This document shows, in pieces, positions 4,363 through 42,248 of a stretch of 64,000 nt of DNA; position 1 is the stretch's first letter; each line of letters opens with the position of its first letter. Source of the stretch: Propionibacteriaceae bacterium (GTDB taxonomy: Bacteria; Actinomycetota; Actinomycetes; Propionibacteriales; Propionibacteriaceae); assembly GCA_009781145.1 (NCBI GenBank), contig WQYR01000001.1:25339-89338 (forward strand), in the 5' to 3' direction. The notes beneath the pieces were generated by a model. It did no database searches. It saw nothing but the letters and a program-made list of their open reading frames with translations, and had not been told where the DNA came from. Made by a program: the position numbers and the translations under genes.

Positions 4363-5217
4363 TCACCAGATTGGTGACAATTTGGAGACCGGTTTTGTAT
4401 CCGACGACGCCACCAAATCGGCGATCAGACCTTGCGGCAACCTTGCGCTTGGGGCGATCTCGGCCCAGGGTATCAAGACAAATGCCCTTTGCCAGGCCCG
4501 GGGGTGGGGTAGTGCCAACTCGTCGTCAGTGACCGTGACCTCGCCGAATGCGATGATATCGACATCGATGATGCGTGGTGCGTGCGGATAGGGGCGGGTG
4601 CGTCCCAGTGTGTGTTCAATGGACGCCGTTTGACGCAACAACTCGTGAGGCGTCAGTGTCGTCAACCCAATTACCACCAAGTTGTGATAATCGGGTTGGT
4701 GTTCGTCACCGACCTCGACTGGGGCCGTGCGGTAGATGCTGGAAAAGGCCATCAAATCGATGCCGGGTGTTTCCGCCAAGGCCTTCAATCCTTGACGCAG
4801 ATTGTTGTCAAGATCACCCAAATTGGTGCCGAGACTCAGCACGAATTCGGTGGCCGGGCAGCTATCACGCCGCCTTTTTACCCGGCAGATCACGTCGTCG
4901 AAAGGCACTTTGAGCGGCGCATTTGGTTTGTGCACCGTGATGCACACGGACCGCAACGATGGGTGGTCCCGCAGAAGCTGGCCAGCGATGGTACCGGCCA
5001 GTGTCTCGATCAAATCGACAGGGTGGCCTTGAATGGCATCGGTGACAATGTTGGCAATTCGCGAATAATCGACGGTGGCTGGCAGTGCGTCGACAGACGG
5101 TTCCGGACGATTCAATGTGACATCAACGACGAATTCCTGGCCGTCCCGACGTTCATAATCCCTGACGCCATGAAAGCCGACGGCGCGTAGCCCATTAATG
5201 TCAATTCGCATTTTCAC
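4363..5217 (-). CDS. folB-folK: Bifunctional dihydroneopterin aldolase / 6-hydroxymethyldihydropterin pyrophosphokinase (FolB-FolK fusion)
   Basis: 284 aa. The N-terminal ~120 aa resemble FolB (GLRAVGFHGV..E...GQEFVVDV). The C-terminal ~160 aa resemble FolK (LSLGTNLGD..., RIIDVDII..., LPHPRAWQRAFVL). Confidence 0.9.
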   Translation of the reverse strand: MKMRIDINGLRAVGFHGVRDYERRDGQEFVVDVTLNRPEPSVDALPATVDYSRIANIVTDAIQGHPVDLIETLAGTIAGQLLRDHPSLRSVCITVHKPNAPLKVPFDDVICRVKRRRDSCPATEFVLSLGTNLGDLDNNLRQGLKALAETPGIDLMAFSSIYRTAPVEVGDEHQPDYHNLVVIGLTTLTPHELLRQTASIEHTLGRTRPYPHAPRIIDVDIIAFGEVTVTDDELALPHPRAWQRAFVLIPWAEIAPSARLPQGLIADLVASSDTKPVSKLSPIW

Positions 5218-21565: not shown

Positions 21566-22507
21566 TCAGATGTCTAGATCTTCGTAGCTACGCGGATCGT
21601 CTCTTGGCTCCAGATGCGCGTCGATGCGCAAAGTTGGCATTCGGGCGACGATGTCATCGATCAGGTCTTCGGTAAGGTCATGGCCCCGCTTGACCGTCCA
21701 ATCGCCGGGCACCAGCACATGGAACGCGGCGAAGTGACGGTTGCCGGCGACGCGGGTGCGCACGGCGTGGAACGAAACCTCGGGGGTGGTGTGGGCATCC
21801 AACACCTCATTCAGTGTGGAGATTTCAGCTTCGGGCAACGCGGAATCCATAAGGGAATTGACGGAGTCGCGGATCAGTTTGAAACCCGTCCACATGATGT
21901 TGACGCCTGCCAGTAGTGCCACCACCGGGTCAAGCCAACCCAAATGCGTCAACGCCACCAGCGCGACGCCCAACAGCACCGCGCCCGAGGTGATGATGTC
22001 CGTCATCAGGTGCTTGCCGTCGGCCGTCAAGGCGGACGAATTGTGCTTACGTCCCTGCTTCAACATAACGAAAGCGACGGCACCGTTGACGCCTGAGGCG
22101 ATAACCGACACCCCCAGGCCGATACCCAGATGCTCCAGGGGTTGGGGGTGGATCAAGCGTTCGATGGCCGTGTAGACGATAAACACCGCCGCCACAAAGA
22201 TCATCGTGCCCTCGACGATCGCGGAGAAGTACTCGGCCTTCGAGTGGCCGTACGGGTGGTTTTCATCCGGCGGCTGGATCGCCACACGCAGCGCGAAAAG
22301 CGCGACCACCGCCGCCACCAGGTTGACGACGGTTTCCGCTGCGTCCGACAGCAGGCCGACCGACCCGGTCATCAGGGCGGCGGTGGTCTTCATCGACAGC
22401 GTGACAACGCCGGCGGCAATACTCAGCCAGGCGAACCGCGATAGATCGACGGGCGCTTGATAGCGGTGGTGGGGCAGCGTGGTGTCAGGTACAACAGGCG
22501 TGGACAT
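21566..22507 (-). CDS. Cation diffusion facilitator family exporter
   Basis: 313 aa. Motifs SLLSDAAETVVN and HPYGHSKAEY, six TM segments, and a C-terminal cytoplasmic domain. Confidence 0.9.
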   Translation of the reverse strand: MSTPVVPDTTLPHHRYQAPVDLSRFAWLSIAAGVVTLSMKTTAALMTGSVGLLSDAAETVVNLVAAVVALFALRVAIQPPDENHPYGHSKAEYFSAIVEGTMIFVAAVFIVYTAIERLIHPQPLEHLGIGLGVSVIASGVNGAVAFVMLKQGRKHNSSALTADGKHLMTDIITSGAVLLGVALVALTHLGWLDPVVALLAGVNIMWTGFKLIRDSVNSLMDSALPEAEISTLNEVLDAHTTPEVSFHAVRTRVAGNRHFAAFHVLVPGDWTVKRGHDLTEDLIDDIVARMPTLRIDAHLEPRDDPRSYEDLDI

Positions 22508-22909
22508 TGAACTAAGTATGCCATCGGAGAGCCCCAGCCTTCTGATTCGGGGCGCCCGCTCCGCGGGTTTGCCGCCGATCCTCTGCTACCGCCATCTGGG
22601 TGGATGGTTGCCGGCGGTGACCACATCTTCCGCGACGTCGTTGGCCGTCCTCGGGAAGCCGGTTGCGACAAGACCGCACCCAAACGTGCTGTTTGCGGTG
22701 GCTCAAGACGAAATAGTGACGCTGTGTAGCCTGACAGTGCCCTTTTCGGGGTAATACCGCACCCAATCGTGTGGGCGGTGCCCCAGGGCGACGTTTGGGT
22801 GGAGTTTGTACCTGCAGGCGTCGGTTCCTCAGTGCAAGAGTGACGGATGGGAGGGGACGAAGAGGACTGCCAAAAAAGATGCCGTTGTTCGCCAGTTACG
22901 CGGAGTGGA

Positions 22910-23015
22910 AACCTAAGAACTGCCCCAGCAACCTCATCGTCGAGATTGAAGTTTTCGTCCACCTGGATCCCGGATTTTGCGGTTTGGGGGACGACAAGTC
23001 CAATCTCGTGGTCGA
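22910..23015 (+). repeat. Copy 1 of the duplicated structured module (X 22910-22933 plus Y 22936-23015)
   Basis: Y folds into nested helices CGAGATTG/CAATCTCG and TCGTCC/GGACGA. See the finding at 22508-23491. Confidence 0.75.
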
Positions 23016-23217
23016 GAACTCCCGCGCCCGCCTTCGCGGGCTTGTGTCCCACGTCCCCTTCGGGGACTTGGATTGGAAAGCTTCTTCCGCAACTTGTCGC
23101 TACTACCCTTTTTGAGACGAGTTCGATGTCAACCGTCCCTTTTGCGGAACTCTGGTTACCGGTCACTTTGACTACTGGGAATCTGTCGGTACTGTTCATC
23201 AGTCAGTTTGGGGTGCA

Positions 23218-23399
23218 AACCAAGGAACTGCCCCAGCCACCAACTGACAGTACGGAACCCAGCCAACTTGCACCGAACGCAAGGACCACCCAGGCCAGGG
23301 GCCACCAATCCACTTGATCGTCGAGATTGGAGTTTTCGTCCACCTAGATGCCGGCGGATTTTGCGGTTTGGGGGACGACAAGTCCGATCTCGTGATCGG
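23218..23399 (+). repeat. Copy 2 of the duplicated module (X' 23218-23241, ~75-nt spacer, Y' 23317-23399)
   Basis: Y' differs from Y by 5 substitutions and one 3-nt insertion over ~80 nt (hand alignment). X' differs from X at 3 of 24 positions. Confidence 0.75.
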
Positions 23400-23491
23400 C
23401 AACGGCACCGGTGGTTGTGTTTGTCTTCTTTCGCAGTCGCCAATTGCTCTTTCATCGTCCGATGAGGCATGGCGTCTCGTAGACTTGACCT

Positions 23492-24886
23492 ATGGCCCGT
23501 CCGTCTTGGTTAGATCTGTTCATGCGAAATTCTGCGCCTCCTCCTGAGGTGGCGGCGCCTGAGGTGACGGGGCTGATTCTGTCTGGTGGTGGGGCCCGGG
23601 CCAGCTTCCATATTGGGGCTGCTCGGTACTTGTATGACGTGGTGGGGATCGCCCCGACCAGCATTCTGGGTACGTCGGCTGGCAGCATCGTCGCCTCGAT
23701 GTTGGCCCAATCGCTTGACCCGGCCGTCCAGTCGAGTGAACTGCGCGAGTTGGAGCGTCTTTGGATGGGCATGACCGCCACGTCCGACATGTTTGCCGAG
23801 CAAGCCTGGTTCACCAATCTGCGTGGGCAGTTGGAAGGCCTGGGCAGTCTGCTTGGAACCCATACGGACGATGCCGAGCCGGTGTTGGCGGGCGATGCTG
23901 ACGACCCGAGAGAGGTTGTCAAGCGGGCTTTGGACACCGATCCGTCTCGAGACATGGTGCTGTCGCCGACTGACATGTGGCAGTTGGCCGGCTCGCTGCT
24001 GCGGGTGGGCAGGGTCGGCGCGGGTTTGGCGACCTCGGTGCGTGGCGCGGAGCGAGCAGCATCCGCCTACCGGCCGGGCCCCATCGTCCACCGTCTGCTT
24101 TTCGAATCGACCTTCCGGTCAAGCCGCATCAACAACTCTGGGGTGAAGCTGCGGCTGGCCATTGTCGATCTCGACTCCGGCGAGTTGCGGTTCATGCGCC
24201 AAGACGGCATCATCGTCGACCGCGACGACCACCCGCTTGATGACGTCGCCTATGACGTGGCGCTTGGGGTGTGGGCGTCCTGTTCGATACCCGGAGTCTT
24301 CCGCCCCGTCAAACTGGGCAACGGCGTCTACGTGGACGGCGGCGTGCGCGAAAACCTGCCGATCGAGATGGCCGTCAAGAACCTGGGTGTCACAAAGCCG
24401 TACGTGGTGGTCGCCCAGCCGCCGGGGCTGCCGCCCGAAGATTTCGCCGCCAAAGACATGGTCTCGGTGCTTCTGCGTGTTGCATCGATCACGTTGGACG
24501 AGACGATCCAAGACGAGGTCGAGTGGGCCCGAACGGCGGGCGCTTGCGTCATCGAACCACACATTGACGTCCATGATGCCGGGACGGTTGAGCCCGCGCT
24601 GCTGCGAATCAACCGCGATTACGGCTGGACGCGGGCGGCTGAGGAAGTCACGGGGGCACCGTCGTCACTGCGCGACGTGAACGAGGCGATCTGCCAGACG
24701 CGTTGCGATTGGGCGGCTCTGTTGCACCCCAAGGCGACGCTCGGCATACCCAGCAAGCCCGAGCCCGTTGACGTCGATCCGGAGCAAATCTCCGCTCTCA
24801 GGTCGCAGTTGAGAGCTCTTTTGGCGCAAGCCGACGAAACGCTGCTACCGCCCGGCCACGAAACCTGGGCCGACGAGTTGGTGTGA
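23492..24886 (+). CDS. Patatin-like phospholipase family protein
   Basis: Oxyanion SGGGARASF, nucleophile elbow GTSAGS, and catalytic Asp in VDGGVRENLP. Confidence 0.88.
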   Translation: MARPSWLDLFMRNSAPPPEVAAPEVTGLILSGGGARASFHIGAARYLYDVVGIAPTSILGTSAGSIVASMLAQSLDPAVQSSELRELERLWMGMTATSDMFAEQAWFTNLRGQLEGLGSLLGTHTDDAEPVLAGDADDPREVVKRALDTDPSRDMVLSPTDMWQLAGSLLRVGRVGAGLATSVRGAERAASAYRPGPIVHRLLFESTFRSSRINNSGVKLRLAIVDLDSGELRFMRQDGIIVDRDDHPLDDVAYDVALGVWASCSIPGVFRPVKLGNGVYVDGGVRENLPIEMAVKNLGVTKPYVVVAQPPGLPPEDFAAKDMVSVLLRVASITLDETIQDEVEWARTAGACVIEPHIDVHDAGTVEPALLRINRDYGWTRAAEEVTGAPSSLRDVNEAICQTRCDWAALLHPKATLGIPSKPEPVDVDPEQISALRSQLRALLAQADETLLPPGHETWADELV

Positions 24887-25857: not shown

Positions 25858-25982
25858 ATTCGGCAATGCGCAAGATGACGGAGTTCCCTACCCGTCATGC
25901 TGCGCGGAACGTAGAGGAGTCGCAGTATCTGTAAAGGTGGAGCAGAGACCTTGGCCAGATCCTGCGACTGCGCTTCGCTTCG

Positions 25983-26059
25983 CGCAGGATGACGGGGACG
26001 GGGTGTTTCGCAGGATGACGGGGACAGGGTGTTCCGCGGATGACGGGGACGGGGTGTTC
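25983..26059 (+). repeat. Three tandem 25-26-nt G-run repeats
   Basis: CGCAGGATGACGGGGACGGGGTGTTT, CGCAGGATGACGGGGACAGGGTGTTC, CGCGGATGACGGGGACGGGGTGTTC. An inverted related copy lies at 25883-25910. Confidence 0.85.
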
Positions 26060-26096
26060 CGCGCAGACGAAAAGAGGGGTCCAGGGAAACGGGTGG

Positions 26097-42165: not shown

Positions 42166-42185
42166 TTTTGGCACTCCCATGGCTA

Positions 42186-42222
42186 CTATAGTGATCAAAA
42201 TCAGTCTGTCTGATCACTATAG
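42186..42222 (-). promoter_or_regulatory. Perfect 12-bp inverted repeat, putative operator of the HTH gene
   Basis: CTATAGTGATCA (42186-42197), a 13-nt spacer, then TGATCACTATAG (42211-42222). It lies 20-55 nt upstream of the HTH start in an AT-rich stretch. Confidence 0.65.
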
Positions 42223-42248
42223 CATCCATGACCCATGCACAGGCGGCT

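Follow-up and report, generated by a model that had tools for sequence, protein, structure and literature searches.

The 64,000-nucleotide (nt) stretch of contig WQYR01000001.1 from a Propionibacteriaceae bacterium that we analysed (the window) raises a simple question: what fills the 984-nt gap at 22508-23491, between a CDF exporter gene on the minus strand (21566-22507) and a divergent patatin gene on the plus strand (23492-24886)? We refer to this gap as the island. Our best guess, with a probability of about 0.4, is that it is an accessory non-coding locus that may encode independently transcribed hairpin small RNAs. The island is an orphan non-coding stretch present in two related lineages, and it matches no known RNA family. 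An earlier annotation of the same DNA (the original prediction) had described it as coding-free, lower in guanine plus cytosine (GC) and the largest gap of the window. Its coordinates and the GC drop were borne out (0.54-0.58 over 22800-23500 vs 0.60-0.67 in the flanks), and a gene map based on GC at third codon positions, too crude for a rigorous ranking of gaps, was consistent with its being the largest, other big 'gaps' being covered by long open reading frames (ORFs).

Two modules, X and Y, each occur twice in the island, as had been predicted. The Y copies are 5 substitutions and one 3-nt insertion apart (about 90% identity), the X copies are 84% identical to each other, and each 29-30-nt Y core has exactly two occurrences in the 64 kb against an expectation of 0. 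The distance from X to Y differs between the copies by the predicted 73 nt, the spacer measuring 0 nt in copy 1 and 73 nt in copy 2; in the related locus L004, described below, it measures 63 nt. Y is a 32-pair imperfect hairpin, and the nested helices P1 and P2 lie at the coordinates first given for them. On the plus strand the folding energies were -32.2 kcal/mol for the first copy, Y1 (z of -2.6), and -41.1 kcal/mol for the second, Y2 (z of -4.6). In a 90-nt sliding scan against dinucleotide shuffles, Y1, Y2 and a pair of GC hairpins downstream of Y1 were clearly better folded than the shuffles, a weaker signal appeared at 23410-23499 (z of -2.6, plus strand), and the rest of the island never fell below -1.5. 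The X region folded worse than its shuffles, with a z of +2.0 for the 90-nt segment 22840-22929. The two GC hairpins stand where the original prediction had placed them; it had given both a 4-nt loop, and the second has 6 bp and a loop of 3 nt, because the hairpin is only 15 nt long. That 15-nt fold also rules out a cUUCGg tetraloop in the second hairpin, which we had considered as a sign of plus-strand RNA.

Among the relatives that we collected, only L004 (patatin 90% identical) contained sequence homologous to the island, 921 nt long and rearranged. The window and L004 are the only lineages with the island, and all comparisons of Y involve three copies. In the window, the order of blocks is 5' part, preX-X-Y1, GC hairpins, about 140 nt, X2-spacer-Y2 and patatin promoter, preX being the segment upstream of X. 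In L004, the order is 5' part, a remnant of the 3' half of Y (4485-4546), GC hairpins, about 90 nt, preX-X-spacer-Y and patatin promoter. From these two orders we concluded that the duplicated unit is preX-X-(spacer)-Y, not Y alone; local duplication of this unit, in which the spacer of 63-73 nt is optional, built the island. Identity to L004 varied widely among the blocks (Table 1). To judge by these values, preX-X, Y and the GC stem-loop pair are clearly conserved well above the island's own background; for preX-X the figures are about 95% vs 45-63%. For comparison, the same two lineages agree at 66-80% of third codon positions in three flanking genes. An intact preX-X is kept once per lineage, as copy 1 in the window and as the promoter-proximal copy in L004.

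In the reading that we tentatively favour, the conserved unit would be an accessory non-coding gene transcribed separately from the patatin mRNA. It would yield one or two 'sibling' small RNAs, each consisting of a single-stranded conserved X followed by the long stabilising hairpin Y, and plus-strand transcription would stop ahead of the patatin promoter, at the GC stem-loops and T-rich tails. Such small RNAs would account for an unstructured conserved segment beside a stable hairpin and for the keeping of one intact unit in each lineage. A terminator scan flagged one site, at 23395-23412 with the tail GGTTGTGTTT, vs 1.6 expected by chance from shuffles, and the plus-strand tails after the GC hairpins (TTGTGT and TTGGATTGG) are weak. 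The T5 run predicted at 23109-23113 is present about 42 nt beyond the second GC hairpin and is not conserved in L004. Actinobacterial terminators are often tail-less.

Several results weigh against this reading, and the pairing of Y is the first of them. Across the three copies, 96.9% of pair cells are standard; among the changes, one is doubly compensatory (U-A, U-G, G-C) and six are wobble changes on one side only. The alignment of orthologous spacers, with L004 as the only homologue, offered a single compensatory pair for a covariation test of the kind suggested with the original prediction; 159 of 500 column shuffles of the three sequences reached the observed score, and the covariation is non-significant because only two lineages and three Y copies exist to be compared. 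When the 13 substitutions were re-placed at random on same-base positions, equal pair survival was reached in 0.2-1.4% of trials, P values (about 0.002-0.014) that are biased because the structure was derived from the same sequences. Pairing was preserved equally strongly under Watson-Crick-only, plus-strand (G-U allowed) and minus-strand rules, and RNA is therefore not favoured over DNA. What the substitution-placement result shows is a maintained hairpin symmetry; it does not show action as RNA. On this evidence the Y hairpin is kept foldable across the only available divergence, in agreement with the fold first proposed for it.

Nor is one strand singled out. A U-G change in Y had been taken to imply plus-strand transcription; the free energies do favour the plus strand, but the composition-corrected z values do not do so consistently (plus/minus pairs of -2.6/-2.9, -4.6/-2.0 and -2.5/-2.7). 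An excess of G-U pairs was set aside as proof of plus-strand RNA, weakened by the strand-inconsistent z values and by the equal pairing under the three rule sets. Because the window has preX-X-Y-GC hairpins and L004 has GC hairpins-preX-X-spacer-Y, the blocks do not form one conserved transcript. A search of the island for sigma-70-like promoters found none, no plus-strand TANNNT hexamer upstream of X is conserved between the window and L004, and the sole plus-strand -10-like hexamer conserved between them is patatin's own TAGACT. Finally, sister lineages have dispersed DNA palindromes at the same site.

The last point emerged from 28 related loci, collected with the patatin and CDF proteins as anchors and with the JGI metagenome contig collection among the sources. 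CDF and patatin are divergent neighbours in most of these loci, with a spacer of widely variable length: about 53 nt in L028, about 40-80 nt in L013, L014 and L022, 76 nt in L011, 105 nt in L010, 173 nt in L015, 190 nt in L009/L024, 921 nt in L004, 984 nt in the window and about 1.25 kb in L025 and L023, two contigs that share an overlap of 45 identical bases. Unrelated inserts, mostly palindromes, occupy the remaining long or intermediate spacers, and this range of lengths and contents led us to regard the CDF-patatin spacer as an insertion hot spot. In L015, nearly all of the spacer (2423-2537) is one long palindrome with an outer stem of about 24 bp (z of -6.6 and -6.9 on the two strands). 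In a sister lineage whose patatin is 89-90% identical (L025 1-687 with L023 1-606, also L002 and L027), the spacer is unrelated to the island; in L002/L023/L025 it contains a pair of palindromes based on GGTTTCCCATACCCAACCTCG together with a larger one containing GAATTCCCC...GGGGAATTC, and the z values of two palindromes in L023 range from -4.6 to -8.7. The palindrome in the L008/L029 spacer belongs to a dispersed family that recurs in L021, L003 and L009/L024 and at 25886-26001 of the window, at the epimerase-PbpA junction. That junction is a 239-nt gap in which 25886-26065 consists of an inverted repeat with 46-nt arms and three tandem copies of GCAGGATGACGGGGACGGGGTGTTYC. The arm of the L015 palindrome, GGTGACGGGGTGGGAA, resembles the GATGACGGGGACGGGGTG repeats at 25985-26065 of the window.

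The spacer is also a place where gene order changes. Upstream of patatin in L007 (1-400), the end of a gene for a helix-turn-helix (XRE-like) protein replaces the CDF gene, and an inversion in L006 (5001-8324) has turned the patatin-epimerase block around with respect to CDF, with one breakpoint in the spacer and 16 nt left before the CDF start. Taken together with the promoters discussed below, these findings make the island a lineage-specific non-coding insertion between two back-to-back, probably leaderless promoters.

With such neighbours, a DNA-level palindromic repeat with no RNA function is nearly as likely as small RNAs. Y would then be a low-copy or decayed element of the REP/MITE kind, inserted into a spacer that tolerates it and locally duplicated by slippage or unequal recombination. 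The symmetry of its arms would come from template switching or from conversion between arms or copies, and the high identity of some blocks from recent conversion or from exchange among co-resident strains rather than from selection. Other palindromes in the same spacer of sister lineages (L015, L023, L008/L029) speak for this explanation, as do the recurrence of the L008/L029 family at other loci and in the window itself, the breaks of assemblies inside the spacer (L002, L023, L025) and the inversion endpoint of L006. Pairing that is preserved as well under Watson-Crick-only rules, the failure to find a promoter, and a window copy 1 that is nearer to the Y-unit copy of L004 than is its positional ortholog, copy 2, which fits conversion or transfer, point in the same direction.

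Copy number and borders argue the other way. No further Y copy was found in 183 kb, made up of 64 kb of this genome and 119 kb of relatives: a covariance model of Y recovered only the three known copies, and BLAST of the island against all collected loci, a comparison proposed with the original prediction, agreed that there are no scattered copies. For a family with a copy every 20 kb, the chance of finding no extra one in 64 kb is estimated at about 4%, and a high-copy repeat is thus unlikely; a low-copy one is still compatible. Of the features that define REP and MITE elements, Y has the hairpin-forming imperfect palindrome, and many scattered copies are absent within the 183 kb. An exact Y 20-mer had 0 matches in viral and JGI metagenome contigs, a result uninformative on diverged copies since the 20-mer mismatches even L004's Y at its last base. 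Neither terminal inverted repeats nor a target duplication were found at the island borders, the only border-spanning pair sitting inside the flanking genes, and BLAST of the island against plasmid and phage sequences gave no match. The 63-nt block of GC hairpins is 62/63 identical at its orthologous position with a 3' flank at 63% and a different 5' neighbour, a pattern that a conversion tract explains poorly. Moreover, the conserved preX-X is not palindromic, and on the plus strand all three copies keep eight G-T pairs, against no more than one A-C pair. Two other mobile-element candidates were rejected: a diversity-generating retroelement, since the copies show no adenine-specific differences and a reverse transcriptase is absent, and an integron attC site or IS200/IS605-type end, since no recombinase or transposase lies nearby.

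Whether the island might instead hold protein-coding sequence was considered in both orientations. In this improbable alternative, X-Y would be a duplicated coding segment of a protein-gene remnant or of a live small gene, the 78-amino-acid ORF P0002 that a public catalogue lists as a gene. Codon-phase GC is coding-like across Y, with a middle phase of 0.35, which led us to keep a small residual probability of an ancient coding origin. The plus-strand ORF stays in frame through the 3-nt insertion of Y2 and the 63-nt spacer of L004, and within its first 16 codons L004 departs from the window by two changes, both synonymous. The 73-nt spacer of window copy 2 is out of frame, and the ORF lacks a Shine-Dalgarno sequence or -10 box, is not conserved in its 3' half, and in L004 has no stop until 560 nt into patatin. 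Indels between the window and L004 in the 5' part (22, 20, 1, 1 and 3 nt) are not confined to multiples of three. From window copy 1 to L004, Y shows about 3 synonymous to 8 non-synonymous changes in the plus frame and 1 to 9 in the minus frame, and its substitutions look neutral in both frames. As first described, the 258-amino-acid minus-strand ORF runs into the CDF gene in another frame, and the frame that it uses carries stops in 2 of the 3 Y copies (TAG in Y2 and TGA in L004's Y).

Homolog searches agree with these patterns. Large protein databases were searched with two reading frames. The 258-amino-acid minus-strand product matched only itself among 5.8 billion proteins. With phmmer, the 114-amino-acid plus-strand product, which contains the 78-amino-acid one, matched itself and four large Bacteroidetes surface proteins with E values of 2e-11 to 8e-4, taken at face value a further point for a coding origin. 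These proteins of type IX secretion share with it only the 14-20-residue motif IVEIEYFxDxDPGFG, repeated 4-8 times per target. We rejected kinship with this Bacteroidetes repeat (EYFxDxDPGxG, about 76-80 residues) because only 14-20 residues align and the score adds up 4-8 near-identical repeats. No single segment exceeds 24.6 bits, too little for significance against a library of 2.4e11 residues, and we treated the match as chance. The same proteins give many spurious Pfam matches, likewise through repeats. Searches of Pfam and NCBIfam with 9-10 island ORFs gave no match. Homology to a frameshifted protein gene, which the original prediction had named as one of the findings that would overturn it, was thus absent from Pfam, NCBIfam and the two-frame searches, and its view that the gap holds no real coding sequence stands on indels, neutral substitutions, minus-frame stops and homolog searches alike.

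The original prediction had offered a structured RNA in two forms, a tandem cis-regulatory leader for patatin or an independent small RNA, and the promoters of the flanking genes separate the two. In all 16 patatin orthologs (16/16) a TANNNT hexamer lies 6-7 nt upstream of the ATG and there is no Shine-Dalgarno sequence. Before CDF, one of the hexamers CATACT, TACACT and TAGACT stands 7 nt ahead of the ATG in the window, L004, L006, L009, L010 and L015. In the minimal spacer, that of L028, there is little beyond two back-to-back -10 boxes. In Mycobacterium tuberculosis, where leaderless mRNAs are abundant, the centre of the TANNNT -10 box lies 7-12 bp ahead of the transcription start (PMC3898074). 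The patatin and CDF mRNAs are probably leaderless, and we infer that patatin transcription starts at or next to 23492; Y2, 90-175 nt upstream, would therefore lie before the promoter rather than in a 5' untranslated region. Y2 does stand upstream of patatin on the same strand with a very stable fold, as a tandem leader or riboswitch should. With no 5' untranslated region implied by a -10 box without ribosome-binding site in 16/16 orthologs, with the island missing at most orthologous loci and found in 2 lineages only, with 68 nt between Y2 and the promoter that cannot be aligned between them, and with no Rfam match, we consider this explanation very improbable and reject it. Of the original pair, the leader fell with the leaderless patatin; the independent RNA keeps a maintained hairpin, which DNA rules fit equally well.

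On its other side, the island might regulate the MntE-like CDF exporter of the minus strand, either as DNA upstream of the gene or as a long alternative leader; this too seems improbable to us. The 5' part is 80% identical to L004 vs a background of 45-63%, and it contains the 14-nt motif ACCGCACCCAAWCG in two direct copies and one inverted copy, all inside the island and conserved in L004. These copies could be protein-binding sites or alternative pairing partners, and under this explanation they would serve CDF as binding sites or leader elements, with a minus-strand -10-like hexamer in X (TAGGTT, 22910-22915), conserved in window copy 1 and L004, driving the gene. Among NCBIfam families, the CDF protein is matched best by the manganese exporter MntE, with a score under the family cut-off. 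On the opposite side, a conserved -10 box of CDF itself precedes the ATG by 7 nt, and in most lineages the gene manages with no island at all. By our estimate, chance would put about one conserved -10-like hexamer into a conserved block of 66 nt, and no manganese riboswitch or other Rfam family was matched. The 5' part shows no excess structure, with z of about 0 on both strands, and the 'covariation' reported there by RNAalifold was disregarded because it involves two sequences only.

Searches for known RNAs bore out the statement that no family is matched. Rfam gave nothing at gathering score in the whole 64-kb window; at E values up to 10 there was nothing inside the island and two weak matches in the CDF coding region. 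The island of L004 gave only chance matches to microRNA and small nucleolar RNA models, and a scan for transfer and transfer-messenger RNAs found none.

Table 1. Features of the island and its borders, in window coordinates, with identity to the homologous blocks of L004.
Feature	Position	Strand	Identity to L004	Remarks
Whole non-coding island	22508-23491			Rearranged 921-nt homologue in L004 only; elsewhere absent (spacers ~53-190 nt) or unrelated inserts
258-amino-acid ORF	22423-23199	-		Gene call in ENA contig; judged spurious
Likely CDF -10 box CATACT	22515-22520	-		7 nt before ATG
5' part	22531-22851		256/321 (80%)	Moderately conserved; folding z ~0, both strands
14-nt motif ACCGCACCCAAACG, copy 1	22673-22686	+		Conserved in L004
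14-nt motif ACCGCACCCAATCG, copy 2	22756-22769	+		Conserved in L004
Inverted motif copy (ACTCCACCCAAACG on minus)	22792-22805	-		Conserved in L004
preX1	22865-22901		35/37	Unstructured segment upstream of X1
78-amino-acid ORF, P0002	22879-23115	+		Gene in public catalogue; judged not real; 3' part not conserved
Module X copy 1	22902-22933		24/25 (core)	
Module Y copy 1	22936-23019		83%	Long imperfect hairpin; 31/32 consensus pairs
GC hairpins with linkers	23018-23080		62/63	Most conserved block; stem-loops at 23026-23041 and 23053-23067
Segment after GC hairpins			63%	
preX2			50%	
Module X copy 2	23210-23241		72%	23231 is C here, T in public contig
X2-Y2 spacer	23242-23316		62%	Identity at background; present in L004 (63 nt), deleted in copy 1
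Module Y copy 2	23317-23403		81%	Best-formed hairpin; 32/32 pairs
Y2 to patatin promoter, 68 nt			45%	Unalignable
T-rich tract after Y2	23415-23431	+		12 T in 17 nt; read from sequence
Likely patatin -10 box TAGACT	23480-23485	+		6 nt before ATG

The surroundings of the island fit an actinobacterial chromosome, with genes for a transhydrogenase, an aldose epimerase, PbpA, RodA, a PP2C phosphatase and FHA proteins. The patatin protein matches residue for residue on contig k141_267703 (173 kb) of the ENA assembly ERZ27257292, and over the 13.4 kb compared the window and this contig differ by one base, within X copy 2. Exact look-ups of the 78-amino-acid ORF and of the 100%-identical patatin protein (P0007) returned no record. 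The public gene call for CDF begins at 22393 (275 amino acids); the 313-amino-acid form from 22507 is conserved in relatives from residue 1 and takes in the first transmembrane segment. The nearest named relatives are metagenome-assembled genomes labelled Propionibacteriaceae bacterium, and the JGI contigs with related loci (Ga0123354, Ga0123357 and others) come from what we take to be termite-gut metagenomes. Elsewhere in the window, at 42178-42230, lies an inverted repeat with 20-nt arms that are 90% complementary (CATGGCTACTATAGTGATCA / TGATCACTATAGCATCCATG) and an operator-like look.

Comparison with known systems places the island between several of them. Tandem 'sibling' small RNAs are exemplified by PrrF1/PrrF2 of Pseudomonas and OmrA/OmrB of Escherichia coli. 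Like these, the island has two similar units in direct orientation in one intergenic region, each a conserved single-stranded stretch followed by a stable hairpin, and the number of copies differs between close relatives. Unlike them, it has neither promoter nor terminator evidence, and its block order is not conserved; with 32 pairs, Y is much longer than the terminator of a typical small RNA, and there is no kinship in sequence or through Rfam. More detailed still, and in our view doubtful, is the proposal that X-Y represents a family of tandem 'sibling' hairpin small RNAs that is new and restricted to a clade of termite-gut Propionibacteriaceae. The family would have arisen in the hypervariable spacer between the promoters, X serving as a conserved single-stranded seed and Y as stabiliser, and would act in trans or on the neighbouring manganese exporter and patatin.

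Y is also like REP/BIME, ERIC, Correia-type and MITE repeats in being an intergenic imperfect palindrome about 80 nt long, and the same spacer in sister lineages has other palindromes, one of them of a dispersed family. It is unlike such repeats in not being dispersed, in having neither terminal repeats nor target duplication, and in that the duplicated unit exceeds the palindrome and includes X. Maintenance of quasipalindromes by template-switch mutation is a known mechanism, and the joint changes of the Y arms (one double and several wobble changes), which DNA rules fit equally well, resemble its products; conserved non-palindromic preX-X and the linkers of the GC hairpins are left unexplained by it. 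With actinobacterial 5' leaders and riboswitches the island shares a structured element upstream of a gene on the same strand, but patatin is apparently leaderless and most of its orthologs lack the element.

The reach of these results is narrow and their interest modest, since they concern two metagenomic lineages with no known target, and no long-standing question depends on the island. If Y is a DNA palindrome, the CDF-patatin spacers would form a clean natural series, from 53 nt to 1.25 kb and with at least five unrelated inserts, of promoter spacers absorbing hairpin-forming DNA. If the small RNA that we favour is real, the island would be a case of a non-coding gene arising and duplicating in an insertion hot spot between two leaderless promoters of an uncultured gut actinobacterium.

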